64,000 bases of DNA from Lachnospiraceae bacterium UBA3866 (GCA_002392345.1 DGGU01000042.1:14358-78357); one strand, 5' to 3'; positions 1,111-39,793 are shown, counted from the stretch's first letter. Numbers and translations are program-made. The notes: a model not told the origin generated them from the letters alone.

Positions 1111-1138
1111 CGTATGGGCGAGCTATGCGAACCCGGAA
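1111..1138 (+). repeat. Degenerate REP copy (CGTATGGGCGAGCTATGCGAACCCGGAA)
   Basis: 24/28 identity to the copy at 11480 (CGTAGGGGCGAGCACTGCGAGCCCGGAA). It has the same placement, between a stop codon and the next RBS. Confidence 0.55.
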
Positions 1139-11479: not shown

Positions 11480-11505
11480 CGTAGGGGCGAGCACTGCGAG
11501 CCCGG
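11480..11505 (+). repeat. REP copy (CGTAGGGGCGAGCACTGCGAGCCCGG)
   Basis: Consensus GTAG head plus the imperfect palindrome GGGCGAGC-ACT-GCGAGCCC. It fills the 38-nt xdhA-xdhB spacer and abuts RBS GGAAGGAG. Confidence 0.85.
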
Positions 11506-12413: not shown

Positions 12414-13005
12414 GAAGATTATAACTCTCCATGTGAATGGAAAAGATAGAGAGGTTGCCATAGATGAGAGAGAGTCTTTATATGAGACTCTTAGAAATGA
12501 ACTTTGTCTTACTTCTATAAAAAAAGGCTGCGAAGTAGGAGAATGTGGTGCCTGCTCAGTTCTGCTTAATGGAAGATGTATAGATAGTTGCATTTATCTT
12601 ACTGTGTGGGCAGTTGGCAAGGACATCGTAACTGTTGAAGGACTTCGTGATGAAGAAAATGATGATATAACTGATGTGCAGAAAGAGTTTATAAAACAGG
12701 CTGCAGTTCAATGTGGCTTCTGCACTCCAGGGTTTATCCTTAAAGCTGTAGAGATAGTTGGCCATAATAAACCATATACAAGAGAAGAAATTAAGAAATT
12801 AATTACTGGCAATCTTTGCAGATGTACAGGTTACATGAATATAGTTACTGCAATTGAGCATGCTATAAAACACAATATGGATAAATTAGGTGTGCCTTAT
12901 GAAGTAGCACCTGCTACAACATCATTTGACATACCAGATAGTGAAAAAGATAAGATGCTTGAAGGTGTGCTTGCTATGCAAGATAATGATGTAACAAAAT
13001 TTTAG
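12406..13005 (+). CDS. xdhC: Xanthine dehydrogenase, [2Fe-2S] subunit
   Basis: Cys clusters CEVGECGACSV and CGFCTPG...CRCTGY. Overlaps xdhB by 8 nt, suggesting translational coupling. Confidence 0.85.
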   Translation: MSKKIITLHVNGKDREVAIDERESLYETLRNELCLTSIKKGCEVGECGACSVLLNGRCIDSCIYLTVWAVGKDIVTVEGLRDEENDDITDVQKEFIKQAAVQCGFCTPGFILKAVEIVGHNKPYTREEIKKLITGNLCRCTGYMNIVTAIEHAIKHNMDKLGVPYEVAPATTSFDIPDSEKDKMLEGVLAMQDNDVTKF

Positions 13006-13076
13006 GGCGAAGCCCAACATAGGGTGAGCGTCCGAGCGGAGCAACAAAGTGCCCTTGGGGTGCACTGCGAGCCCGG
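13006..13076 (+). repeat. Long-form REP unit (GGCGAAGCC linker + ATAG head + about 39-nt hairpin cargo + ACTGCGAGCCCGG)
   Basis: Near-identical to units at 22193..22262 and, inverted, 27064..27135. It starts directly after the xdhC stop codon. Confidence 0.8.
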
Positions 13077-16595: not shown

Positions 16596-19500
16596 ATGAG
16601 CGAAGTAATGAAAATTATGCCATTCAAGAATTTGATGGAGTGGGTTATTGATGAGAATAAAACCCGCAAGTCTGTTTTTGGTGTGAAGAAGTACTATAAG
16701 GCTGATGTTAAGAAAGGCTTCAACATTTATAAAGAGCATATAGAGACACCAATTGGACCTGCAGCTGGACCAAATTCTCAACTTGCTCAAAATATCATTG
16801 CAAGCTATATGGCCGGTGCAAGATTCTTTGAACTAAAGACTGTTCAAGAGATGACTGGTGCTGACATGGTTAAATGTGTTAATAAGCCATGTATTAAAGC
16901 AGATGATGAATGCTACAATTGCGAATGGTCTACTGAGCTCTATATGGACGAAGCGATTCAGGAATACATCAAAGCTTGGGTCATGCTTCACTTCATTTCA
17001 AAAGAATTTGAATTAGGCGCAACTGATGGTTTTGTATTCAACATGTCAGTTGGCTATAACCTTGATGATATAAAGAAAAAAGACACAGATAAGTTTATAG
17101 AGTGTATGAAAGATGCGAATAAGCATCCTGTATTTAAAGGGGCAATCGATTATCTTAAGGCTCATGTAAATGAGTATAAGAATTTTAAATTAGAAGATAT
17201 AGAAAAAATTCCAAATCAAGTATGCCATTCTGTGACGGAATCTACTCTTCATGGTTGTCCTCCTGCTGAGATAGAGAGGATAGCTATGTATCTTATGGAA
17301 GAGAAGGGTCTCAATACATTTATCAAATGCAATCCAACTCTTCTCGGATACGAGAGAGCTCGTAAAATTTTAAACGACATGGGCTACACATATATTGCAT
17401 TTACTGATTCGCATTTCTTGACTGATCTTCAGTGGGATGATGCTGTTAAAATGCTTAAGAGACTTATGGAACATGCAGAGAAGAAAGGACTTACTTTTGG
17501 CGTAAAACTGACTAATACTTTCCCTGTAGATGTAACAAGAAATGAATTGCCATCTCAGGAGATGTATATGTCAGGGAAATCTCTTTTTGCACTTTCGACT
17601 AAGGTCGCTGAGATGCTTACAACAGAGTTTAACGGCAAACTTAAGATAGCTTATTCTGGTGGCGCTGATTATTTTAATATAGATAAATTAGTTGATGCTG
17701 GTATCTGGCCTGTGACAGTTGCTACAACGATTCTAAAGCCAGGTGGATATGATAGATTCCATCAGATGGCAGAAAAGGTTATGGCCAATGTATCTGACAT
17801 GGTTACATTTAACGGAGTAGATGTAAAGAAAGTTCAAAATCTTTCTGAAGAATGTAAAAAAGATAAACATCTTGTTAAAAAGTCACTTAGATTTAAACAA
17901 AATAAAATCAAGGTTAAAAATCCACTCACTGATTGCTTCATGTCACCTTGCTCCATGACTTGCCCTATAAATCAAGATATATCTCTTTATAATTATTATG
18001 TAAAGAATAATGAATTTGAAAAAGCACTTGAAGTAATATACCGCACGAATCCACTACCTTTTATGACTGGAAATATCTGTGCTCACCCTTGTACAACTTC
18101 ATGTATGAGAAATCATTATGAAGAGAATGTTGACATTCGTGGCAATAAACTTCTTGCAGCGAGAAACGCCTTTGATAAAGTCGTTAAAAATGTTAAGCCA
18201 GTTTCGCCTAATGGTAAAACTGTAGCAGTTGTCGGTGCTGGCCCTGGTGGTATAGCTGTTGCTACTTTCTTAGCGAGGGATGGATATGCAGTCACTGTAT
18301 ATGATAAAGAGAAGAAAGCTGGCGGAACAGTGTCTAATATAATTCCTCATTTTAGACTACCAGAGGAAGAAATTGAAAAAGATGTAGAGTATGCTAAGGC
18401 TTGGGGAGCAAAATTCGAACTTGGAGTTGAGATAAAAAGTATAAAAGAACTTAAAGATAAATTTGATTATGTTGTTATTGCTATAGGAGCACATAAAGAG
18501 AGCAAGGCTGGATTTACTGGCGATGACAAATGCATAAATGCTCATAAATTCCTTATAGATTTCAATGAGAAGAATGGCAAGCTTGATATAGGAAAGAATG
18601 CTGCAGTTATCGGTGCTGGCAATACTGCTATGGATGCAGTTCGTGCAGCAAAGAGAACTTCAGGTGTAGAGAATGTATACCTTGTATACAGAAGAAATAT
18701 GTTAAATGCACCTGCTGATGAAGATGAGATCAATCTTGCAATTAAAGATGGTGTGCAGATTAAAGAATTACTTGCGCCAGATAGTTATGAAAATGGTGTA
18801 CTTAAATGTAAAGTTTGTAAACTTGGACCTATCGGTGCTGATGGAAGAAATAGCATAGACGTAACAAACGATATAGCTGAGATTAAAGCGGATATTGTCA
18901 TAGCATCTATCGGAGAAAAAGTTGATGGTGAATTCTATAAATCAAATGGTATAGATGTAAATGATAAAGGACTTCCAGTTCTTGATTCTATGATGCAGAC
19001 ATCTATTAAAGATGTATATGCTATAGGCGATGGTGCACTTGGTGCTTCTATTATAGTAAAAGCTATAAGGGATGCAAAACTTGTATCAGTGGCAATAAGT
19101 GGCAAGTCGTTCGAAGGTAATGAAGTGCCAAATGAAAAAGTTGAAAATATATATAAAGACCGAGCAATACTTAAAGATCGAGTGGAAGTAAGTGCTAATA
19201 ATGTAGGGGCTGTAAGCCATGCGAGCCCTAATGATGCAAGCAGGTGTTTACACTGCAACAAAGTCTGTGAGACTTGCAACGAAGTATGTCCGAATCGTGC
19301 AAATGTACATATAGAACTTAAAGATGGCAGTCACCAGATAGTTCATGTAGACAGTATGTGTAATGAGTGTGGAAATTGTGCAGTATTTTGTCCATATGAT
19401 AGTCGTCCATATAAAGATAAATTCACTTTATTCTTTGATGAGGCTGCTATGAATGATTCTGAAAATAGTGGATTCTATTTTAAAGATGAAAACCTTGCAG

Positions 19501-19619
19501 TTGTAAGGATAGATGGAGTGAAATCTGAATATAAATTTCATACTAGCGATGCAAAACTCGGGAAGCTTGCTGAAGTCATAGATACTATAAAAGAAAAACA
19601 TTCGTACATGGTGTTTTAG
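16596..19619 (+). CDS. ygfK: YgfK-type putative selenate reductase / glutamate-synthase-like Fe-S flavoprotein
   Basis: 1007 aa with Rossmann motifs VVGAGPGGIAVA and VIGAGNTAMD. Cys clusters CxxxCPxxQD, and a C-terminal CLHCNKVCETCNEVCP ... CNECGNCAVFCP. Confidence 0.8.
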   Translation: MSEVMKIMPFKNLMEWVIDENKTRKSVFGVKKYYKADVKKGFNIYKEHIETPIGPAAGPNSQLAQNIIASYMAGARFFELKTVQEMTGADMVKCVNKPCIKADDECYNCEWSTELYMDEAIQEYIKAWVMLHFISKEFELGATDGFVFNMSVGYNLDDIKKKDTDKFIECMKDANKHPVFKGAIDYLKAHVNEYKNFKLEDIEKIPNQVCHSVTESTLHGCPPAEIERIAMYLMEEKGLNTFIKCNPTLLGYERARKILNDMGYTYIAFTDSHFLTDLQWDDAVKMLKRLMEHAEKKGLTFGVKLTNTFPVDVTRNELPSQEMYMSGKSLFALSTKVAEMLTTEFNGKLKIAYSGGADYFNIDKLVDAGIWPVTVATTILKPGGYDRFHQMAEKVMANVSDMVTFNGVDVKKVQNLSEECKKDKHLVKKSLRFKQNKIKVKNPLTDCFMSPCSMTCPINQDISLYNYYVKNNEFEKALEVIYRTNPLPFMTGNICAHPCTTSCMRNHYEENVDIRGNKLLAARNAFDKVVKNVKPVSPNGKTVAVVGAGPGGIAVATFLARDGYAVTVYDKEKKAGGTVSNIIPHFRLPEEEIEKDVEYAKAWGAKFELGVEIKSIKELKDKFDYVVIAIGAHKESKAGFTGDDKCINAHKFLIDFNEKNGKLDIGKNAAVIGAGNTAMDAVRAAKRTSGVENVYLVYRRNMLNAPADEDEINLAIKDGVQIKELLAPDSYENGVLKCKVCKLGPIGADGRNSIDVTNDIAEIKADIVIASIGEKVDGEFYKSNGIDVNDKGLPVLDSMMQTSIKDVYAIGDGALGASIIVKAIRDAKLVSVAISGKSFEGNEVPNEKVENIYKDRAILKDRVEVSANNVGAVSHASPNDASRCLHCNKVCETCNEVCPNRANVHIELKDGSHQIVHVDSMCNECGNCAVFCPYDSRPYKDKFTLFFDEAAMNDSENSGFYFKDENLAVVRIDGVKSEYKFHTSDAKLGKLAEVIDTIKEKHSYMVF
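19203..19228 (+). repeat. REP-like sequence embedded in frame within ygfK (GTAGGGGC-TGTAAGCCA-TGCGAGCCC)
   Basis: Both GC-rich flanks (8 and 9 nt) are identical to the REP consensus. Orientation matches the neighbouring + copies. It encodes VGAVSHASP. Confidence 0.6.
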
Positions 19620-19622
19620 TTT

Positions 19623-22190
19623 ATGGCTAAAATTTTTGTAAATGGAAAAGAATATGAGTTAGCTGATGACAAAAAAGTCATGAGTTTTCTTAGAGATGAA
19701 CTTAAACTCTTGTCAGTGAAAGATGGTTGTGCAGAAGGTGCTTGTGGAGCATGCACTGTACTTGCTGACGGCATCCCTACTAAAGTATGTGTGCAGACTG
19801 CTAAAAGAATGGAAGGCAAGCATATCTTGACTGTGGAAGGGCTAACCGATAGAGAGAAGGATGTATTTAAATATGCATTCGGCAAGGCTCAGGCTGTACA
19901 ATGCGGTTTCTGCATACCTGGTATGGTTATGTGTGCGAAGGCACTAATTGACAAGAATAATAATCCAACTCGTATAGAAGTAGCTGATGCAATTAAAAAC
20001 AATTATTGTCGCTGCACTGGTTACAAAAAAATAATTGATGCCATAATTCTTGCTGCAAAGATATTTAGAGAAAATACAGAAGTTAAATTTGAAAATAAAG
20101 TAATGGCCTTAGGTGAGAGTGATGTAAGAGTAGATGCTCCTGATAAGACCATGGGTACTGCAAAATATGCCGATGACATTTACCTTGATAATATGATTTA
20201 TGGCTCATGTGTACGTTCTCTGTATCCAAGAGCAAGAGTTAAAAACATCGACATAGAAGAGGCTAAGAAAGTTCCTGGAGTTGTCGGGATACTTACTGCT
20301 AAAGATTTACCAGGAAAAATGACTGGACACTTAAAGAAAGATTGGTTTGCACTTATCGATATTGGGGACATTACTCACTCACTTGGAGATGCAATTGTTG
20401 CAGTGTATGCTAAAGATAAAGAAACTCTAGAAAAGGCGAAGGCTCTTGTTAAAGTTGAGTATGAAGTGTTGCCTGCAGTATTTGATAGATATGAGGCAAT
20501 GAAAGAAGGAGCTCCTATAGTTCATGAAGAAGAAGAGACTAAGACAAATATATTAGTTGAAAAACATATAAAGAGAGGTGACCCTGATACTGCAATTAAA
20601 AATGCAAAATTCAAAGTTACCAATACCTATAAGACTCCATATACTGAGCATGCCTTCCTTGAACCAGAATGTGCTGTAGCACTTCCACTTCAAGATGGTG
20701 GTGTTATGATATACTCTTCAGATCAAAGTACTTATGATACAAGAAGAGAATGCAGTAACATCACAGGACTTCCAGAAGAAAAGATTATAGTAGAAAATTC
20801 ATATGTCGGTGGTGCATTTGGCGGAAAAGAAGATATGACTATACAACCACTTACCTGTGTAGCTGCTATGAAATATGGCGTAGCAGTCAAAATGAAACTT
20901 ACAAGACAGGAGAGTATGCAACTTCATCCAAAGCGTCATCCTATGGATGTAACTCTTACCACAGCTTGCGATGAAAATGGAATACTAGTTGGCATGAAAT
21001 GTGAAGTAGTATCTGATACTGGTTGTTATGCTTCACTTGGTGGACCAGTGCTAGAAAGGGCTTGTACACATGCCGCAGGACCATATAATTATCAAAATGT
21101 AGAGATACACGGAACAGCTGTATATACTAATAATCCGCCAGCAGGAGCATTTAGAGGCTTTGGTGTAACGCAAACTTGTTTTGCAACTGAGATGAATATA
21201 AATAAGCTTGCTGACATGGTAGGCATAGATTATTTTGAAATTAGAAGAAGAAATGCTATTAAGCCTGGTGATGTATTACCTAATGGCCAAGTCGCTGATG
21301 CAAGTACGGGCTTAATTGAGACACTTGATGCAGTAAAAGATATATATTATAAAAATAAATATGTTGGCATAGCGTGTGCGATGAAAAATGCAGGCGTTGG
21401 TGTTGGACTTCCTGATTATGGAAGATGCAAAATCCTTGTAAATGATGGAAAAGTTGTGATTCATTGCGGAGCTTCAGAAAATGGACAAGGTATAGGACAA
21501 GTTTTAGTGCAAACTGTAAGCAATGAATTAAAACTTCCAATTGATAAGATAGTTTGGAAAAATTCTAATAGTAAGAATGATCCTGATAGTGGCACAAGTT
21601 CTGGTAGTCGTCATACACTTATTTCTGGCGAAGCGTGTCTTAGAGCGACAAGAGAATTATATAAAGATTATATAGCAAATGATAAAGATCTAAACAAATT
21701 AAATGGTAAAGAATATGTAGCGGATTTCTTTGAGCCAACAGATAAACTCGGAGCGGATGTAGAGTTCCCTGTATCACATATTGGTTATGGTTTTGCAACC
21801 CAGCTTTGCATTCTTAATGATGATGGTACGATAAAAGAGATGGTAGGAGCTCATGAAGTTGGTAAGGCTATCAACAAACTTGGTGTTGAAGGACAGATAG
21901 AAGGTGGCATGGTGATGAGCATGGGTTATGCACTTACAGAAGACTTAAAAGTAATTGATGGCAAGGTAAATGCGAAATATGGAACTTATGGATTATTCCG
22001 TGCTAATAAAGTCCCAGAGCTCACTTCAATTGTTGTTGAAAAAGAAGGTATGAAGTGGGCCAATGGCGCTATAGGTTGTGGTGAGATTACAGCCATCCCT
22101 ACAGCCCCAGCTATCGCCCTCGCATATTATAGAAAAGATGGCGAGTTCCGCACGGAGCTCCCACTCAAAAACACGCCATATAGAAAATAG
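19623..22190 (+). CDS. xdhD: Selenium-dependent molybdenum hydroxylase (XdhD-like; 2Fe-2S domain fused to Mo-binding body)
   Basis: N-terminal CAEGACGACTV, CGFCIPG, CRCTGY, followed by hammerhead and Mo-hydroxylase domains (GGAFGGKED). Adjacent to ygfK. Confidence 0.8.
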   Translation: MAKIFVNGKEYELADDKKVMSFLRDELKLLSVKDGCAEGACGACTVLADGIPTKVCVQTAKRMEGKHILTVEGLTDREKDVFKYAFGKAQAVQCGFCIPGMVMCAKALIDKNNNPTRIEVADAIKNNYCRCTGYKKIIDAIILAAKIFRENTEVKFENKVMALGESDVRVDAPDKTMGTAKYADDIYLDNMIYGSCVRSLYPRARVKNIDIEEAKKVPGVVGILTAKDLPGKMTGHLKKDWFALIDIGDITHSLGDAIVAVYAKDKETLEKAKALVKVEYEVLPAVFDRYEAMKEGAPIVHEEEETKTNILVEKHIKRGDPDTAIKNAKFKVTNTYKTPYTEHAFLEPECAVALPLQDGGVMIYSSDQSTYDTRRECSNITGLPEEKIIVENSYVGGAFGGKEDMTIQPLTCVAAMKYGVAVKMKLTRQESMQLHPKRHPMDVTLTTACDENGILVGMKCEVVSDTGCYASLGGPVLERACTHAAGPYNYQNVEIHGTAVYTNNPPAGAFRGFGVTQTCFATEMNINKLADMVGIDYFEIRRRNAIKPGDVLPNGQVADASTGLIETLDAVKDIYYKNKYVGIACAMKNAGVGVGLPDYGRCKILVNDGKVVIHCGASENGQGIGQVLVQTVSNELKLPIDKIVWKNSNSKNDPDSGTSSGSRHTLISGEACLRATRELYKDYIANDKDLNKLNGKEYVADFFEPTDKLGADVEFPVSHIGYGFATQLCILNDDGTIKEMVGAHEVGKAINKLGVEGQIEGGMVMSMGYALTEDLKVIDGKVNAKYGTYGLFRANKVPELTSIVVEKEGMKWANGAIGCGEITAIPTAPAIALAYYRKDGEFRTELPLKNTPYRK

Positions 22191-22192
22191 AG

Positions 22193-22422
22193 TTGGCGAA
22201 GCCACACGTAGGGTGAGCGCCCGAGCGAAGCGACAAAGTGCCCTCGGGGTGCACTGCGAGCCTTTGGCGAAACCACCCGTAGGGGGAAAACAGTCCAGTG
22301 GACTGTTTTCCACTGCGAGCCCTTGGCGAAGCCATTTGTAGGGGCGAGCACTGCGAGCCCTTGGAACAACAACCACAGGTGAGCATATTACCATAACCGT
22401 AGGGGCGAGCACTGCGAGCCCG
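22193..22422 (+). repeat. Tandem array of four same-orientation REP units (BIME-like)
   Basis: GTAG heads at 22208, 22279, 22338 and 22399, each ending in ACTGCGAGCC(C). Units are joined by TTGGCGAAGCC linkers. The cargo between head and tail varies. Confidence 0.9.
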
Positions 22423-22432
22423 TTAATGTAAT

Positions 22433-23083
22433 ATGAAATATAAAGTAATAGATAAAGAAAAATATTATAGAAAAGATGTTTTTAATCACTTTACTAAAGA
22501 CTGCAAATGCTCTACATCAATTACATCAAGGATAGATGTAACCAAACTGGTAGAATATTCAAAGACTAAAGACACAAAGTTTTATATAAACTTTTTATAT
22601 ATTCTTTCAAAAGTTTTGAATTCGCAAGATGATTATAGAATGGGCTATTTATGGAAGATTGAAGAATTAGTTTGTTATGATGTAATTAATCCAGCTCATT
22701 ATGTATTCCATGATGATACTAAGACTTGCACAATGGTATATAGCAAATATTCTGTGAATTATAAAGATTTTTATGATAATGTCAAACTTGATATAGAGAA
22801 TGCAAAAGCAACACGAGAGTATAGATTTGATATTGTAAACCACCCAAACTGGTTTGATGCTTCTTACATACCATGGGTTTCATATGATTCTTTAAATATA
22901 GAATTGCCAGATGGATTTTTACATTTAGCACCTATAGTGAACTGGGGAAAATATAGAGAAGAAAATGGAAGACTAATGATGCCAGTAACAGTTCGAATGA
23001 ATCATGCTATAGCAGATGGTTACCTAATTGCAAATGTATTCTGCGAGTTACAAAACGAAATAGATTCATTTGTTAAACAGTAA
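22433..23083 (+). CDS. Chloramphenicol acetyltransferase (CAT, type A) family protein
   Basis: 216 aa with CAT-like length and layout. N-terminal YYRKDVFNHF; catalytic-His region MNHAIADGY (compare HHAVCDGFH). Confidence 0.7.
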   Translation: MKYKVIDKEKYYRKDVFNHFTKDCKCSTSITSRIDVTKLVEYSKTKDTKFYINFLYILSKVLNSQDDYRMGYLWKIEELVCYDVINPAHYVFHDDTKTCTMVYSKYSVNYKDFYDNVKLDIENAKATREYRFDIVNHPNWFDASYIPWVSYDSLNIELPDGFLHLAPIVNWGKYREENGRLMMPVTVRMNHAIADGYLIANVFCELQNEIDSFVKQ

Positions 23084-23084
23084 T

Positions 23085-23109
23085 CGTAGGGGCGAGCACT
23101 GCGAGCCCG
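23085..23109 (+). repeat. REP copy immediately upstream of the RAYT gene
   Basis: CGTAGGGGCGAGCACTGCGAGCCCG, a perfect consensus lying 13 nt before the RAYT start codon. Confidence 0.9.
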
Positions 23110-23122
23110 TTATAAATGCAAC

Positions 23123-23563
23123 ATGGAATTAAAAACAAGAAAGAATTTAAGACTAAAAGAATATGATTATTCACAACAAGGTTGGTACTTTATAACAATT
23201 TGTACTAAAAATATGCATAACTATTTTGGGCATATCGTTGATAATAAAGTAATGCTAAATGATGAGGGCATCAAACTTAAGAAGATTATTGATGATTATA
23301 ATAATGTAAGTGATAAAGTTAAAAATGAATTCTATCAAATAATGCCGAATCATTTACATATTATAATAAGGATCGAATCGGATGGAGAGCATAGTATTGG
23401 ATCAATAGTTTCAGGACTAAAGGGTAAGTGCACAAGAGAACTTAAGATTAAAGACTTATGGCAAAAGAATTATTATGAAAGAGTTATTAGAGATCAGAAA
23501 GAATATGATAGTATTGTTAAATATATAGCAGAGAACCCATTTAGAGATAAGTATACTTGGTAA
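23123..23563 (+). CDS. REP-associated tyrosine transposase (RAYT; IS200-like HUH/Y1 family)
   Basis: 146 aa with HUH motif in MPNHLHIIIRI and a catalytic-Tyr block LWQKNYYERVIRDQKEYDSIVKYIAENP. Flanked by REPs. Confidence 0.85.
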   Translation: MELKTRKNLRLKEYDYSQQGWYFITICTKNMHNYFGHIVDNKVMLNDEGIKLKKIIDDYNNVSDKVKNEFYQIMPNHLHIIIRIESDGEHSIGSIVSGLKGKCTRELKIKDLWQKNYYERVIRDQKEYDSIVKYIAENPFRDKYTW

Positions 23564-23581
23564 AATGGCGTTGGAGGCTAA

Positions 23582-24337
23582 ATGATTATTAAATGTCCAA
23601 ATTGTAAGGAAGAGATTTCTAGCAGAGCCGATAAGTGTGTTCATTGTGGAGTTGTATTTGGTGAACACTGCAAAGAGTGTGGAGCTCCACTTAATAAAGG
23701 CGATAAAATATGTGGTGCCTGTGGATGTCCAGCTGATTATGGGCATTCCAATAACCGTAAAAATATATCTAAAGCAATTCTTGGATTCTTAATTAGTTTT
23801 TTTATAATTGTGATACTCGTTGGTTTTGGTGTATTCTTTTACCAAAAACAATTGGATGTAGATTTTATAAACAATTATGCTTCTATTGTGCCAAAATTTA
23901 GCTATTCAAGTACTGACATAGACAGAAATGGTGAATTGTATAGAAAGGTATGGTACAATTCTATTTGGAAATCAAAAGATGATGAAACGGACCCTTATAC
24001 TAGAAAGAATGATGGAAAAGGCGCGTTTTATGATGATTTTAATGATGCATTATTGCTGCTTGACAATAGTCCAGATTATAAAAGCAAATGCGATGATATT
24101 ATTAAAACTCACGATGAGATTGTGGAAATAATGCAGAACATAATAAAACCAAGTGATAGATATTTAGATATTTATATAGAAATGAAGAAATGCTATGATG
24201 ACTATTTAGACTTATACCATATTGTAATTCATCCTGGTGGAGAATCATATAATTCTTATGAGGAAAAGTTTAAAAACAGAAGAGGCGCATTTAAAGATAG
24301 TTTACTAAAGTTAATGGATCATAAGGTTACTAATTAA
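23582..24337 (+). CDS. Double zinc-ribbon, single-pass membrane protein (hypothetical)
   Basis: N-terminal CPNCKEE..CVHCG and CKECG..CGACGC zinc ribbons, one TM helix (ILGFLISFFIIVILVGFGVFFY), and a C-terminal domain of about 160 aa with unknown function. Confidence 0.6.
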   Translation: MIIKCPNCKEEISSRADKCVHCGVVFGEHCKECGAPLNKGDKICGACGCPADYGHSNNRKNISKAILGFLISFFIIVILVGFGVFFYQKQLDVDFINNYASIVPKFSYSSTDIDRNGELYRKVWYNSIWKSKDDETDPYTRKNDGKGAFYDDFNDALLLLDNSPDYKSKCDDIIKTHDEIVEIMQNIIKPSDRYLDIYIEMKKCYDDYLDLYHIVIHPGGESYNSYEEKFKNRRGAFKDSLLKLMDHKVTN

Positions 24338-24357
24338 TTGTTTATATTAGGCGTATT

Positions 24358-24378
24358 TGGGCTCGCAGTGCTCACTCG
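24358..24378 (-). repeat. Truncated inverted REP copy (GGGCTCGCAGTGCTCACTCGG)
   Basis: 15/15 match to the REP tail in reverse orientation; the GTAG head is degenerate. Confidence 0.6.
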
Positions 24379-24398
24379 GATAAAAGGATGTGTATTTT

Positions 24399-24584
24399 AT
24401 GGCAATGACACCGAAAGAAATGGTAGATTTATTAGAAAAGAATGGATTTGTCAAGATTAGACAAAAGGGTTCGCATGCCATGTATAAAAATGCAGCAACC
24501 AATAGGCAAGTTACAGTTCCAATGCATGCTAAGGATTTGCCAAAAGGATTGGAAAAAGCTATAAAAAAACAAGCAGGAATATAA
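24399..24584 (+). CDS. hicA: HicA toxin (type II TA mRNA interferase)
   Basis: About 61 aa; LEKNGFVKIRQKGSHAMY...VTVPMHAKDLPKGLEKAIKKQAG is the typical HicA/YcfA fold signature. ATG 24399 is preferred, about 10 nt after AAAAGGA. Confidence 0.85.
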   Translation: MAMTPKEMVDLLEKNGFVKIRQKGSHAMYKNAATNRQVTVPMHAKDLPKGLEKAIKKQAGI

Positions 24585-24595
24585 GGAGTGATTTT

Positions 24596-24862
24596 ATGAA
24601 AAGAGTATTTTATTTAGCAATATTTCATGAAGAGAATAATGAATATTGGGTTTCATTTCCAGATTTTCCAGAGTGTTTTTCGCAAGGTACTACATTAGAA
24701 GATTCTTTTAAACATGCACAAGAAGCATTAGAGTTATGTATTGAAGAAAGATTAAGTAATAAAGAAAAATTACCTACTCCTACATTAGTTTATGACAAAA
24801 GTGGTAATGATAAACATGTTCTTATGTCGTGTGAGTATGATATGAATGCAATTGCAGCATAG
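24596..24862 (+). CDS. hicB: HicB-family antitoxin (short form)
   Basis: 88 aa; FHEENNEYWVSFPDFPECFSQGTTLEDSFKHAQEALELCIE is the HicB N-terminal fold. Lies directly downstream of hicA. Confidence 0.8.
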   Translation: MKRVFYLAIFHEENNEYWVSFPDFPECFSQGTTLEDSFKHAQEALELCIEERLSNKEKLPTPTLVYDKSGNDKHVLMSCEYDMNAIAA

Positions 24863-25530: not shown

Positions 25531-25645
25531 CGGGCTCGCAGTGCTCGCACCTACGAAGAATGAGTAAGATTACGCCAGCGGGCTCGCAGTGCTCGCCCCT
25601 ACGGGTGGCTTCGCCAAGGGCTAGCAGTGCTCGCCCCTACGGTGG
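25531..25645 (-). repeat. Array of three inverted-orientation REP units
   Basis: CGGGCTCGCAGTGCTCGC(A/C)CCTAC at 25531 and 25579, GGGCTAGCAGTGCTCGCCCCTAC at 25618, and a GGCTTCGCC linker. Confidence 0.9.
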
Positions 25646-25679: not shown

Positions 25680-27062
25680 ATGATGAGAAAAGTATTGCTG
25701 AAAAATGGTATAATAGTTAGTGGGAAGAAGTGTTATACTTCTGATGTTTTGATTGAAGGGGAAAAGATAAAAAAAGTAGGAAAGAATATAAAGGTAACGG
25801 GCTCGCTGTGCGAGGTGGTTGATTGCACCGGAAAATATATTTTCCCTGGCTTTATAGATGGGCATACGCATTTTGATTTGTCGGTGGCAGGAACAACTAC
25901 CATAGATGATTTTAATAGTGGAACAAAGGCTGCCATAAGCGGTGGGACTACAACCATCATAGATTATGGAACTCAGTATAAGGGCGAGACACTAAAACAA
26001 GGTTTGAAGAATTGGCTTAATAAGGCAAAGGATGGAGTGTCATGCGACTTTGGAGTTCACATGTCAATCTCTGATTGGAATCCTAGAGTTAAAAATGAAG
26101 TGAAGGACATGGTAAAAGCCGGTGTCACTTCATTTAAATTATATACAACTTACGATATAAAACTTGATGATGATGATATGCTTGCTGCATTAACGGAGAT
26201 AGCTAAGTGTAAAGGAATCACAGGAGTCCACTGTGAAAATGATGGCATCATAAAAGATTTAAGAAGCGAAGTCAAAGGAACTGATAACAAAAAAGTAATC
26301 TCACATGCACTAACTAGACCATCTGTGGCAGAAGCCGACTGTGTAAATCGTCTTTCATATATGTCACACATTACAGGTGCAGCATTTCTAGCAGTCCATG
26401 TGACTTGTGAAGAAGCATTAAATGAAGTGAAACTCGCAAAGAAAAAAGGCTACAAGGTATACGGCGAGACTTGTCCGCAGTATCTTTTCTTTGATGATAG
26501 TGTATATAATAAGAGTTTTGATGAGTCAAGTAAATACGTATGTGCGCCACCAATTAGAAAGAAAAAAGACATTAAGGCTTTGTGGAAGGCACTTAATGAT
26601 GGAAGTATAGATATAGTTTCAACAGACCACTGTTCATTTACTAAAAAGCAAAAAGCACTTGGTAAAAATGACTTTAGAAAGATACCAGGTGGACTAAATG
26701 GTGTTGAGCAGAGAGGCATATTACTTTTTGATGCAGTTCAAAAGAAAAAAATTTCTATAGAGAGAATGTGTGAACTTTTATCTGAAAACCCTGCGAAACT
26801 TTTTGGTCTTTGGGATAGGAAAGGATTTGTAAAAAAAGGATATGACGCAGATCTTGTTATAATCGATCCAAAGAAAACCACTACCTTAAGCTTGAAGAAC
26901 CAAGTTTCAAAATCAGACTATTGTGCTTTTGAGGGTAAGAAGTTAAAAGGAAAAATTGATGGAGTATTCTTAAGAGGAAAGCAAGTTGTCGACCAAAATA
27001 AAAATATTACTGATGGCATAGGTAAGTATATAAAAAGAAAAGTGTATAAAGACGTTAACTAA
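25680..27062 (+). CDS. hyuA: D-hydantoinase/dihydropyrimidinase family (HyuA/YgeZ-like)
   Basis: 460 aa; PGFIDGHTHFD metal site; cyclic-amidohydrolase layout; belongs to the ygeW-ygfK neighbourhood. Confidence 0.8.
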   Translation: MMRKVLLKNGIIVSGKKCYTSDVLIEGEKIKKVGKNIKVTGSLCEVVDCTGKYIFPGFIDGHTHFDLSVAGTTTIDDFNSGTKAAISGGTTTIIDYGTQYKGETLKQGLKNWLNKAKDGVSCDFGVHMSISDWNPRVKNEVKDMVKAGVTSFKLYTTYDIKLDDDDMLAALTEIAKCKGITGVHCENDGIIKDLRSEVKGTDNKKVISHALTRPSVAEADCVNRLSYMSHITGAAFLAVHVTCEEALNEVKLAKKKGYKVYGETCPQYLFFDDSVYNKSFDESSKYVCAPPIRKKKDIKALWKALNDGSIDIVSTDHCSFTKKQKALGKNDFRKIPGGLNGVEQRGILLFDAVQKKKISIERMCELLSENPAKLFGLWDRKGFVKKGYDADLVIIDPKKTTTLSLKNQVSKSDYCAFEGKKLKGKIDGVFLRGKQVVDQNKNITDGIGKYIKRKVYKDVN

Positions 27063-27063
27063 T

Positions 27064-27172
27064 CGGGCTCGCAGTGCACCCCGAGGGCACTTTGTCGCTT
27101 CGCTCGGGCGCTCACCCTACGAATGGCTTCGCCAAGGGCTCGCAGTACGCTCACCCTACGGATGGCTAGCCC
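27064..27172 (-). repeat. Two inverted REP units (long form plus cargo-less form)
   Basis: The reverse complement of 27064..27135 equals unit 22193..22262 except for the linker. 27136..27159 is GGGCTCGCAGTACGCTCACCCTAC. Confidence 0.9.
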
Positions 27173-37412: not shown

Positions 37413-37895
37413 ATGCCAGAAAATAATACTGTAAAACAACAAATATCAAAGGAAGGCCTTGAAAAATATCTTGAGGAATTGAATTATCTTAAAGGCGAGA
37501 GAAGAGCTGAGATAGCAGAGAAGATAAAAGATGCAAGAGAACAAGGTGATCTCTCTGAGAATGCTGAGTATGATGCAGCTAAAGATGAACAAAGAGAGAT
37601 AGAACTCAGGATTGAGACCATAGAAAATATCATAAAGAATGCAGAAGTGGTTGAAAAATCTGATTTGAAACGTGGAACTATTGGAGTTGGTAGCCATGTT
37701 AAACTTTTTGATTTGAAAGAAAAGGAAGAGATCGAATACGATATAGTTGGTGCAAGTGAAGCCAATAGTCTTAACGGCAAGATCTCAAACGAATCACCAC
37801 TTGGCAAAGAACTTCTTGGAAAGAGAAAAGGCGATGTAGTCGAAATCCAACTAACCCGTGGAAAATTAAAAGTTGAGATCCTAAAAGTATCATAG
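37413..37895 (+). CDS. greA: Transcription elongation factor GreA
   Basis: 160 aa; coiled-coil N-terminus with DLSENAEYDAAKDEQ and a C-terminal FKBP-like domain. The greA-lysS synteny is typical of Firmicutes. Confidence 0.9.
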   Translation: MPENNTVKQQISKEGLEKYLEELNYLKGERRAEIAEKIKDAREQGDLSENAEYDAAKDEQREIELRIETIENIIKNAEVVEKSDLKRGTIGVGSHVKLFDLKEKEEIEYDIVGASEANSLNGKISNESPLGKELLGKRKGDVVEIQLTRGKLKVEILKVS

Positions 37896-37903
37896 GGGTA
37901 TAT

Positions 37904-39793
37904 ATGTCAGAAGAGATTAGAGAACAAACCATAGAAGATATTAATAAACTTGAGAAAGCCAAACTCGATAAGTTTAATGAGTTTCTTGCTGAAGGTAAGA
38001 ATCCATTTTTAATTACAAAATATGATGTGACTAATCATACGATGGACATTAAAAATGATTTTGAAGGTTTTGATGGGAAGACTGTATCGCTTGCAGGAAG
38101 GCTCATGCTAAAAAGAGTTATGGGTAAGGCTTCATTTGCCAATATAGAAGATAGAGAAGGGAACATCCAACTTTATGTTGCTCGCGACGATATAGGCGAA
38201 GAGAGTTACAAGGATTTTAAGAAGTACGATATAGGCGATATCATAGGTGTTAAGGGATTTGTATTTAAAACCCAGACTGGTGAGATATCCGTTCATGCTA
38301 AAGAAGTAGTACTTCTCTCTAAATCACTTGCGGTTCTTCCAGAAAAATTTCATGGATTCCAAGATAGGGATCTTCGATATAGACAGAGATATATAGACCT
38401 CATAATGAATCCAGATGTGAAGAAGACTTTCATAATGAGATCTAAAATTATAAAAGAGATAAGAAACTTCCTTGATGGTCGTGATTTTATAGAAGTTGAG
38501 ACGCCAATATTAGTAGAAAATGCAGGTGGTGCGAATGCAAGACCATTTGAGACGCATTTCAATGCACTCTCTGAAGATAGAAAGCTTCGTATCTCACTTG
38601 AGCTTTATCTTAAGAGACTTATCGTTGGTGGACTTGAGAGAGTATATGAGATAGGTAGAGTTTTTAGAAATGAAGGAACTGATACTAAACATAATCCAGA
38701 GTTCACTCTTATGGAATTATACGAGGCTTATACTGACTATGAAGGCATGATGGAACTCACTGAATCTATGTTTAAGCATATAGCGAAGAATGTAGTTGGA
38801 ACTTTAAAACTCCCTTATGGCGATAATGTGATAGATTTTGAAAAGCCATTTGCGAAGATTACTATGATGGATGCAGTTAAGAAATATAGCGGTGTAGACT
38901 TTACTGCTATAAAAGATGACGAAGAGGCTAAAAAAATTGCACTTGAGAAGAAAGTTGAATTCTTACCTCATCATACGAAGGGAGATATACTCAATCTTTT
39001 CTTTGATGAATTTGTCGAGAAAGAGCTTATACAGCCAACCTTCGTCATAGACCATCCTATAGAAGTATCACCACTTACTAAGAAGAAACCAGGTGATGAA
39101 AGTCTTACTGAGAGATTTGAATTATATATCAATGGTTATGAGATGGCCAATGCCTACTCAGAGTTAAATGATCCAATAGACCAAAGAGAGAGATTTGTAG
39201 CGCAGGAAAAACTAAAAGCACTAGGCGATGAAGAGGCAAATAGCATGGATGAAGATTTCTTACATGCTCTTAAGATTGGTATGCCTCCAACAGGTGGCAT
39301 AGGATATGGCATAGATAGGCTTGTAATGCTTATGACAAATAGCCAGGCCATTCGCGATGTTTTGCTTTTCCCTACCCTCAAATCTGAAAAGACTGGATCT
39401 GAAGAAGACAAGAAAATAGATTTTTCTAAAGTTGTTATAGAACCATTATTCACAGAACTTGTAGATTTTGAAACATTCAGTAAATCAGATTTTAGAGCAG
39501 TGAAAGTAAAGGCGTGCGAGGCGGTACCAAAGTCTAAGAAACTCCTTAAATTCACCCTTGATGATGGATCAGGCACTGATAGAACCATACTTAGTGGCAT
39601 TCATGCTTTCTATGAACCAGAACAATTAATAGGAAAGACACTTATCGCTATCGTCAATCTTCCACCAAGAGCAATGATGGGAATTGACAGTTGTGGCATG
39701 ATACTTTCAGCCATCTACAAAGAAGGCGACGAAGAGAGACTCAACCTCTTAATTGTTGATAACAACATACCGGCAGGGGCGAAATTGTATTGA
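37904..39793 (+). CDS. lysS: Lysyl-tRNA synthetase (class II) with C-terminal Trbp111/EMAPII-like tRNA-binding domain
   Basis: OB-fold N-terminus, motif 2 RVFRNEG, motif 3 GIGYGIDRLVM. An extra ~136-aa tail (nt 39383..39790) reads FRAVKVKACEAVPKSKKLLKFTLDDGSG...IVNLPPRAMMGIDSCGMIL, like the MetRS C-terminal domain. Confidence 0.85.
   Translation: MSEEIREQTIEDINKLEKAKLDKFNEFLAEGKNPFLITKYDVTNHTMDIKNDFEGFDGKTVSLAGRLMLKRVMGKASFANIEDREGNIQLYVARDDIGEESYKDFKKYDIGDIIGVKGFVFKTQTGEISVHAKEVVLLSKSLAVLPEKFHGFQDRDLRYRQRYIDLIMNPDVKKTFIMRSKIIKEIRNFLDGRDFIEVETPILVENAGGANARPFETHFNALSEDRKLRISLELYLKRLIVGGLERVYEIGRVFRNEGTDTKHNPEFTLMELYEAYTDYEGMMELTESMFKHIAKNVVGTLKLPYGDNVIDFEKPFAKITMMDAVKKYSGVDFTAIKDDEEAKKIALEKKVEFLPHHTKGDILNLFFDEFVEKELIQPTFVIDHPIEVSPLTKKKPGDESLTERFELYINGYEMANAYSELNDPIDQRERFVAQEKLKALGDEEANSMDEDFLHALKIGMPPTGGIGYGIDRLVMLMTNSQAIRDVLLFPTLKSEKTGSEEDKKIDFSKVVIEPLFTELVDFETFSKSDFRAVKVKACEAVPKSKKLLKFTLDDGSGTDRTILSGIHAFYEPEQLIGKTLIAIVNLPPRAMMGIDSCGMILSAIYKEGDEERLNLLIVDNNIPAGAKLY

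Follow-up and report, generated by a model that had tools for sequence, protein, structure and literature searches.

The defining feature of repetitive extragenic palindromic (REP) elements is a GTAG tag at the 5' foot of a hairpin, and the term REPtron denotes a locus with one transposase gene between inverted cognate REPs (PMC6006769, PMC8266576). The enzymes concerned are called REP-associated tyrosine transposases (RAYTs); that of Escherichia coli needs an irregular stem, and E. coli REPs conserve such an irregularity (PMC8266576). REPs and RAYTs have been studied almost solely in Proteobacteria, where REPs occur in inverted pairs and an inverted doublet (REPIN) is thought to be the replicating unit. 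In the paper on the GTAG-tagged REP superfamily (Di Nocera et al. 2013, PMC3733652), Firmicutes and Clostridia go unmentioned in the text, and our literature search for REPs or RAYTs in Clostridia or Lachnospiraceae returned nothing specific, the surveys consulted leaving the REPs of Firmicutes uncovered. Here, we describe repeat arrays in a stretch of 64,000 nucleotides (hereafter the window) from Lachnospiraceae bacterium UBA3866 (DGGU01000042.1:14358-78357). An earlier note on this DNA had read the arrays as REP-type repeats, and tag, hairpin and RAYT all bear this out: the arrays are very probably GTAG-tagged REP elements of a REP/RAYT system organized as a REPtron, whose RAYT probably spreads them.

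The window has a G+C content of about 35%, and the G+C-rich block at 22193-22421 lies between the stop codon of a xanthine-dehydrogenase-like (xdh-like) gene (19623-22190) and a chloramphenicol-acetyltransferase-like (CAT) gene (22433-23083). All units of this array lie on one strand and share a GTAGGG head and a ACTGCGAGCC(C) tail; the parse given for the array in the earlier note, coordinates and sequences included, was reproduced exactly (Table 1). The array is real, and the list of units in the earlier note was incomplete, lacking those at 1112-1134, 11481-11503, 23086-23108, 24359-24381, 25532-25554, 25580-25602 and 25618-25640. In total, about 17 related units are present, all within 26 kb (1.1-27.2 kb), and none was found between 27.2 and 64 kb. 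The 11-nt tail CACTGCGAGCC occurs 14 times with at most one mismatch where 0.17 occurrences are expected, the pattern of head, 6-36 nt and tail seven times where 0.00 are expected, and the heptamer GCGAAGC 10 times where 2.2 are expected, seven of these within REP arrays. The data covered are the window and scattered metagenome contigs (L-numbered below) rather than the whole source genome. An exact 22-mer of the unit is found on 43 metagenome contigs (21 from a single assembly) and also in other species, and the sister subfamily of the unit at 1112-1134 recurs in L149, L164, L169 and L171. A loose scan of genome contigs with GTAGGGN{6,36}ACTGCGAGCC gave at least 119 loci, nearly all chance matches in high-GC genomes; among the matches listed, real units were present in L083 and L106 only. 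The latter is a sheep-omasum metagenome-assembled genome (MAG) and among the nearest named relatives; the other samples are presumably also of rumen or gut origin.

The unit is a 23-nt imperfect hairpin made of GTAG, GGGC, GA, an inner stem of 2-3 bp with its loop, GA and GCCC. In the short unit, the fold GGGC-GA-GC-ACT-GC-GA-GCCC follows GTAG immediately and contains six Watson-Crick pairs and the tandem G.A. The tag stands directly 5' of GGGC...GCCC in all canonical units, with GTAT and GTAA as variants. Covariation was assessed on 22 distinct 23-nt variants from the window and related contigs. The inner pair 12-16 is C:G in 14 variants, T:A in seven and T.G in one, while pair 11-17 is G:C in 18, A:T in two and G.T in two, and neither is unpaired in any. 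The positions between the stems are G.A or A.G in 20 of the 22 and G:C only in two perfect-palindrome subfamilies. The observed covariation score was reached by none of 500 shuffles. In longer variants the inner stem shifts from CGC/GCG to TGC/GCA. A G+C-rich stem-loop is present across copies, as expected of REPs, with modest stability as DNA.

About 700 nt from the array begins an open reading frame (ORF) that matches Pfam Y1_Tnp. Its best NCBIfam model is the REP-associated tyrosine transposase REP_Tyr_transpos (NF047646, 61 bits, E 1e-16), and it scores 18 bits against the IS200 model NF033573, which places it closer to RAYTs. The best sequence match in the PDB is E. coli TnpA_REP (4ER8). 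In the alignment HLH falls on the HUH motif, W, Q, E and R fall on W94, Q95, E100 and R104, the residues that contact GTAG in E. coli (PMC6006769, PMC8266576), and the catalytic Y115 is matched by Y134, N119 by N138. Among 33 homologues, down to 40% identity, the HUH, GTAG-contact, tyrosine and asparagine residues are invariant or nearly so (>=90%), H77-x-H79, Y134 and N138 being strictly invariant; several homologues are annotated by JGI as "REP element-mobilizing transposase RayT". An AlphaFold (AF2) model (pLDDT 85.7) has 4ER8_A as its top Foldseek match (TM 0.69), followed by IS200/IS605 transposases. By sequence comparison and modelled structure, the ORF at 23123-23563 is thus identified as a RAYT, and the missing C-terminal extension hints at the published subclass 2.4 or 2.7 (PMC6006769). 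The earlier note had supposed that the repeats act as folded single-stranded DNA (ssDNA), which fits an HUH transposase nearby, but it had missed the RAYT itself, which explains the system.

The window contains one RAYT copy. All units 5' of it (1.1-23.1 kb) are on the + strand and all units 3' of it (24.3-27.2 kb) on the - strand; since every flanking gene is on the + strand and the sign of the GC skew is constant, this strand switch is centred on the RAYT gene. The same layout, + upstream and - downstream, is found in six lineages, namely the window and five relatives. In L126-128, a Lachnospiraceae MAG whose RAYT is 73% identical, the gene is syntenic (~79% nucleotide identity), with the same REP on the + strand upstream and one on the - strand downstream. 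In L129 (62%), L174 (58%), L130 (53%) and L175 (52%), + units upstream and head-to-tail - arrays downstream occupy the immediate flanks; in the window and L126, another gene separates the RAYT from the - copy. L126 carries the window's unit, and the others have REP variants of their own (GTAGGGGCGAAGCACCGCGAGCCC in L129, GTAGGGGCGAATGCTTGCAGAGCCC in L130, GTAGGGGCGAAGCTTTGCGAGCCC in L174 and GTAGGGGCGAACGTGTACGGAGCCC in L175). The locus is a REPtron, with a vertically inherited RAYT between inverted REPs. Between the RAYT and the inverted REP remnant of the window lies a 251-aa ORF with an N-terminal double zinc ribbon (23582-24337), present only in contigs of this species and in none of the other RAYT relatives examined; a HicA/HicB toxin-antitoxin pair (24390-24862) is found just 3' of the REPtron.

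The order and orientation of units were surveyed over 389 kb (the window plus non-redundant related contigs), which hold 130 units as 61 singletons and 28 arrays of 2-5 units. Adjacent units lie on the same strand in 40 of 41 pairs, in agreement with the head-to-tail order that had been noticed from the window, and alternating or inverted pairing of the kind known from bacterial interspersed mosaic elements (BIMEs) or REPINs is confined to the single remaining pair. L176, a distant RAYT relative (36% identity), shows REPs that are perfect palindromes and form inverted pairs of the classical type; head-to-tail order is therefore peculiar to the clade of 142-146 aa RAYTs. At sites between co-directional genes, the GTAG strand coincides with the coding strand in 24 cases and is antisense in three; within the window, three of eight sites are antisense to the flanking genes. 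Furthermore, at 60 sites as opposed to 24 the GTAG strand is the one locally rich in G, a bias that would suit action on the lagging-strand template, as in IS200/IS605 (PMC6006769).

The E. coli system of REPs, BIMEs and TnpA_REP (RAYT group 2, 4ER8) is similar in several respects: a GTAG tag 5' of a G+C-rich imperfect hairpin, a conserved irregularity of the stem (an AA/GC bulge in E. coli, the tandem G.A here; PMC8266576), a single transposase gene between inverted REPs, several REP subfamilies per genome, and conserved catalytic and GTAG-contact residues. In contrast, E. coli REPs alternate in orientation, whereas those described here run head to tail; the hairpin here is much shorter, with its six Watson-Crick pairs, the protein is also shorter (146 aa) and devoid of the C-terminal tail, and the host belongs to the low-GC Clostridia and not to the proteobacteria. 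Pseudomonas REPINs and group 3 RAYTs resemble this locus in that the REPs are short, that a single-copy RAYT, vertically inherited, is flanked by REPs of its own, and that the REP sequence co-varies with the RAYT lineage (PMC3116915, PMC5581495). In the REPIN model, however, an inverted doublet replicates, whereas here inverted neighbours are almost absent and singletons and direct arrays dominate; likewise, group 3 REPs are perfect palindromes, whereas these units keep the G.A mismatch. The units also have the attributes of the GTAG-tagged superfamily, with the GTAG head, a stem of 5-13 bp, a loop of 2-20 nt, frequent clustering, copies inside genes and an associated tyrosine transposase (PMC3733652). 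IS200/IS605 elements and their non-autonomous derivatives have in common with this system the HUH Y1 fold, the recognition of ssDNA hairpins and strand-specific action. Unlike them, the RAYT gene lacks distinct left-end and right-end hairpins around it and occurs once in the window, at a place that is syntenic in the ~79% identical relative; its score against the IS200 model is low, as stated above. The kind of system is known; as a variant it is set apart by its family and host group, by direct arrays, which are unusual for REPs, by the tandem G.A in the hairpin, by interchangeable hairpin tips and by its many copies in frame within genes.

By analogy with work on E. coli and IS608 (PMC8266576), from which we extrapolate the catalytic action of the RAYT, its cleavage site and how arrays grow, the system may operate as follows. 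The RAYT, an HUH/tyrosine ssDNA endonuclease-ligase, would bind, in single-stranded DNA, the top strand of a REP in its folded form, reading the GTAG tag, the G+C foot and the tandem G.A irregularity. It would cleave beside the hairpin and rejoin the strands, so that REP units, possibly with their linker, would be copied or moved in a strand-specific manner. Because recognition would sit in head and foot, the hairpin tip would be free to vary, which would give rise to short, T-type, long-loop and palindrome subfamilies. Strand-specific insertion beside an existing REP, together with slippage or unequal exchange, would produce head-to-tail arrays, whose units would afterwards decay by point mutation.

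Several observations weigh against this explanation. As DNA, the short hairpin is weak (-4.2 kcal/mol, z = -0.5). The palindrome unit has another sequence in place of the canonical 5' arm, and pairing at the foot is limited to GGG/CCC, which makes recognition by the RAYT not obvious. The 61 bits of the RAYT against NF047646 are below the curated cut-off of 80, and this RAYT is therefore a divergent one. The strand bias is confounded with gene orientation. Finally, L144 is devoid of the whole block of CAT, RAYT and zinc-ribbon genes (window 22180-24399 compared with L144:735-872) and keeps REPs at the junction, and the array difference between strains in the CAT-RAYT spacer amounts to whole multiples of a 61-nt unit plus linker, for which slippage alone could suffice.

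Alternatively, arrays might act mainly at the RNA level, as 3'-end hairpins that shield upstream mRNA from 3' exonucleases or attenuate read-through in operons, as some E. coli REPs have been shown to do, the RAYT being of importance for their origin only. Units are indeed placed right after stop codons and ahead of the next ribosome-binding site, the sense orientation prevails between co-directional genes, the short unit folds better as RNA (-10.3 kcal/mol) than as DNA, and roles in mRNA stability and termination have been reported for E. coli REPs (PMC8266576). Nevertheless, a terminator scan detected no + strand T-run terminator-like site in the arrays, a search of the whole window at Rfam 15 gathering scores gave 0 matches, and the antisense sites of the window, the many copies within coding sequences and the gain and loss of arrays between close strains all fit poorly. 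We regard a mainly RNA-level function as possible but rather improbable; an RNA-level role is in any case compatible with, and not exclusive of, the RAYT explanation.

Copies inside genes are common. About one third of the REP clusters in metagenome contigs lie within long ORFs, in frame, and the units read as VGASTASP (frame 1) or RGEHCEP/RGELCEP (frame 2). Whole arrays can be read through: the linker then encodes LAKP or MAKP, the palindrome VGGKQSSGLFSTASP, and half-units give VGASDQS repeats. Two of the three sense frames and all three antisense frames of the unit are open. The host genes encode RumA-like methyltransferases, a thiamine pyrophosphate (TPP) enzyme, the GyrA C-terminal domain, a RecF-like protein, an ABC ATPase and a membrane protein, among others, and the site or the composition of the intragenic REP differs among orthologues. 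Intragenic REPs and the Rickettsia palindromic elements (RPEs) are known precedents, in which in-frame repeats add short peptides to the products of housekeeping genes (PMC3733652). RPEs are mostly longer, and RPE-4 and RPE-6 have been placed in CGTC families without a dedicated transposase (Di Nocera et al.), whereas the unit here is 23 nt long, yields the peptides given above, and is translated as part of whole arrays, linker included. In the window, a 26-mer at 19203-19228 (GTAGGGGCTGTAAGCCATGCGAGCCC), within the coding sequence (CDS) 16596-19619, reads NN-VGAVSHASP-ND, in the frame style of the other copies, and shows only a 4-aa indel relative to the L126 orthologue; at most, this is suggestive of an old REP inserted in frame. 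L142 has a similar variant between genes.

Arrays also differ between close strains. In the CAT-RAYT spacer the window has a single unit; L121 and L122, at 98-99% identity in this stretch, have three. In L144, whose aligned flanks are 95-97.5% identical, the array after the xdh-like gene consists of no more than the palindrome unit, the decayed unit and a single short unit, the turnover at this place being four units as opposed to two. At the site of the 25532-25640 array, L126 has one unit at the orthologous place. No unit is present in the window in the spacer 3' of a greA-like gene (37888-37911); L154 (98.5%) and L160 have one each there, and L083 has three, of different subfamilies. All that the window retains at this place is tcaTAGGGGtatat, and the stop codon overlaps a possible remnant of a REP head. 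The region from the xdh-like gene to the amidohydrolase gene is a variable island bounded by REPs. Within it, the place of CAT is taken in L126, a related species, by a Na+/H+ exchanger gene, and the zinc-ribbon and HicAB genes are absent there.

Such differences could in principle arise if arrays changed only by replication slippage and unequal recombination, with the RAYT as an inactive or domesticated relic. The whole-multiple length differences suit this idea, as does the report that RAYTs behave like housekeeping genes (PMC5581495), and resemblance to slippage products is found both in half-units, i.e. tandem head and 5' arm only, cut at the loop, which lie 5' of full units in L135, L138, L130 and L175, and in the collapsed units GTAGGGGCGAGCCC of L174. 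But slippage cannot seed new sites, and the unit is dispersed over 43 metagenome contigs and other species, with insertions at differing positions in orthologous genes; moreover, the catalytic residues of the RAYT are all intact and conserved as far as the most distant of the 33 homologues. We therefore consider it unlikely that slippage and recombination are the whole story.

The varied middles of the units had been described as exchangeable cargo. Head and tail are constant and the middle varies, and the long and palindromic middles recur at non-orthologous sites; they are therefore modules and not flanking sequence. By fold and covariation, the short cargo GCGAGC is simply the 5' arm of the hairpin. 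The unit at 27136 does resemble the long form minus its insert, as had been noticed: it reads GTAGGG-TGAGCGT-ACTGCGAGCCC, a T-type unit with G.T at the foot and a 5-nt loop, and the long unit has the same T-type arm with 33 nt added in the apical loop. The long unit is known from four sites, 22208-22262, 27066-27120 (- strand, identical to the former), 13019-13073 and one in L149. Of the five substitutions in the copy at 13019-13073, four are transitions; between them the five have abolished the GTAG head (now ATAGGG) and the internal GCGAAGC. No special structure could be attributed to the 39-nt insert, since the fold of the long unit is unremarkable against shuffles (z = +0.36) and the inner stem is broken in L149. 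The changes in the 13006 copy, once taken to preserve pairing, are two one-sided C-to-T transitions, accompanied by mutation of the GTAG head, and GCGAAGC is hardly a maintained part of the long cargo, being lost in two of the four copies (13019 and L149). These two copies are decaying, not compensated. The idea that the long cargo is a decayed dimer of REP, linker and REP, which would explain its GCGAAGC, was rejected, as 607 of 2000 shuffles score equally.

The palindrome, believed to be unique, occurs once in the window but recurs elsewhere. The unit is found with the same junctions in L139 and twice in L164, at three non-orthologous sites, and at the orthologous site in the shorter array of L144. 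Its fold as ssDNA is strong (z = -3.9). In L152 (3020-3046), a relative of the palindrome cargo, TGCAAATAGTCCACTGGACTGTTTGCC, lies 8 nt 5' of a REP and not within one; this placement hints at an origin of the palindrome as a separate hairpin that afterwards became fused into the REP frame. The short, T-type, long-loop and palindrome forms represent subfamilies distinguished by their hairpin tips.

The spacers that separate units are of three classes: 3-10 nt, 15-16 nt with a conserved GGCGAAGCC core, and 38 nt. The GGCGAAGCC linker is a recurrent module, as had been proposed, present in at least 10 arrays on five or more contigs; L142, L164 and L171 have its core in their arrays, and L169 has the variant GGCAAAGCC. 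This core is the GCGAAGC mini-hairpin with one extra pair. The d(GCGAAGC) mini-hairpin is stable as DNA. The mutated linkers GGCGAAACC and GGCAAAGCC are uncompensated. The 38-nt stretch had been read as a linker; aligned to the 15-nt linker plus GTAGGGTGAGCGTACTGCGAGCCC, it scores better than 3000 of 3000 shuffles, and its length equals 15 + 23, so that we now read it as a decayed linker plus unit. The array at 22193-22421 therefore has five units. In L121 and L122 the same decayed unit accompanies a REP at a different spacer, which indicates that linker and unit were copied together. That the repeats constitute a dedicated cargo-carrying ssDNA element, with a fixed frame of head and tail, functional GCGAAGC mini-hairpins and structured inserts swapped as payload, is quite unlikely: the constant frame, the varying and recurring middle, the recurrent linker mini-hairpin and the half-units cut at the loop favour it, but the long insert has no special structure and conserves neither its stem nor its GCGAAGC, the short cargo is the hairpin arm itself, mutated linkers are uncompensated, and the freedom of the hairpin tip accounts for the variation.

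Within the RAYT explanation, a more specific proposal can be put forward only tentatively, and we judge it rather more likely to be wrong than right. The Clostridia clade of 142-146 aa RAYTs might mobilize single REP hairpins together with the 15-nt linker, and not inverted doublets, by strand-specific insertion beside REPs and into coding sequence. It might need nothing but the GTAG head, the GGGC/GCCC foot and the tandem G.A, so that the tip could carry arbitrary sequence; the unit would then be tolerated in coding sequence because its frames are open and frame 1 encodes VGASTASP, a peptide of small residues. If true, single-hairpin mobilization would provide a natural exception to the REPIN-doublet model, and it would be a source, widespread among rumen and gut Clostridia, of peptides inserted into housekeeping proteins. 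The Clostridia family offers a direct test of what RAYTs need for recognition and of the identity of the mobile unit, and the in-frame copies in gyrA, recF-like and rumA-like genes mean that these repeats also reshape proteins of gut and rumen Clostridia.

Table 1. Repeat units, linkers and associated features in the window, and sites on related contigs (prefixed by contig)
Feature	Position	Strand	Remark
Single REP, sister subfamily GTATGGGCGAGCTATGCGAACCC	1112..1134	+	
Single short REP between stop codon and following ribosome-binding site	11481..11503	+	
GGGCGAAGCCC mini-hairpin, then decaying long unit	13005..13074	+	head ATAGGG, 5 substitutions
Linker, 15 nt, TTGGCGAAGCCACAC, GGC-GAA-GCC mini-hairpin	22193..22207	+	folds as mini-hairpin
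Long REP unit: GTAGGG, T-type 5' arm TGAGCG, 33-nt apical-loop extension, ACTGCGAGCC	22208..22262	+	
Linker, mutated mini-hairpin: GGCGAAACC (TTTGGCGAAACCACCC)	22263..22278	+	
Palindrome REP unit: GTAGGG, 13-bp-arm palindrome GGAAAACAGTCCA-G-TGGACTGTTTTCC, ACTGCGAGCCC	22279..22322	+	
Linker TTGGCGAAGCCATTT	22323..22337	+	
Short (canonical) REP unit GTAGGGGCGAGCACTGCGAGCCC	22338..22360	+	hairpin backed by covariation
38-nt spacer, read as decayed 15-nt linker + T-type REP unit	22361..22398	+	alignment compared with shuffles
Short REP unit, last of the array, 11 nt 5' of CAT gene	22399..22421	+	
Short REP unit, REPtron left arm, 14 nt 5' of RAYT start codon	23086..23108	+	
Predicted RAYT / TnpA_REP gene, 146 aa, HUH Y1 transposase	23123..23563	+	profile, structure and motif matches
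Degenerate headless REP CCGAGTGAGCACTGCGAGCCC, inverted; REPtron right arm, 3' of zinc-ribbon gene	24359..24381	-	
Three-unit head-to-tail array	25532..25640	-	units 25618-25640, 25580-25602, 25532-25554; GGCGAAGCC linker 25603-25617
Two-unit array	27065..27159	-	T-type short unit 27136-27159, linker 27121-27135, long unit 27065-27120
Units in greA-like spacer	L154:5417-5514; L160:5600-5690; L083:5567-5680		
ORFs with in-frame REPs	L167:442-1971(-); L150:15-1520(-); L149:2282-4186; L106:999-2888		
ORFs with in-frame REPs	L164:676-1869(-); L138:3925-5316; L161:698-2017(-); L159:2120-3313(-)		

A tail-like match at 25800 was rejected as a REP unit; it lies within the amidohydrolase CDS and shows no indel relative to the orthologue. 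In practical terms, arrays of this kind break metagenome assemblies and create spurious ORFs. The 22193 array is a run of N (an assembly gap) in L121, and on the opposite strand it generates a 128-aa ORF (22026-22412, - strand) that is called as a gene in a public assembly (L120:8904-9290) and is very likely spurious. As regards the surroundings, the genes at 9139-33000 encode xanthine-dehydrogenase-like molybdenum hydroxylases, several amidohydrolases (hydantoinase-like and adenine-deaminase-like), a xanthine/uracil permease and RidA, and look like a cluster for purine or pyrimidine degradation.

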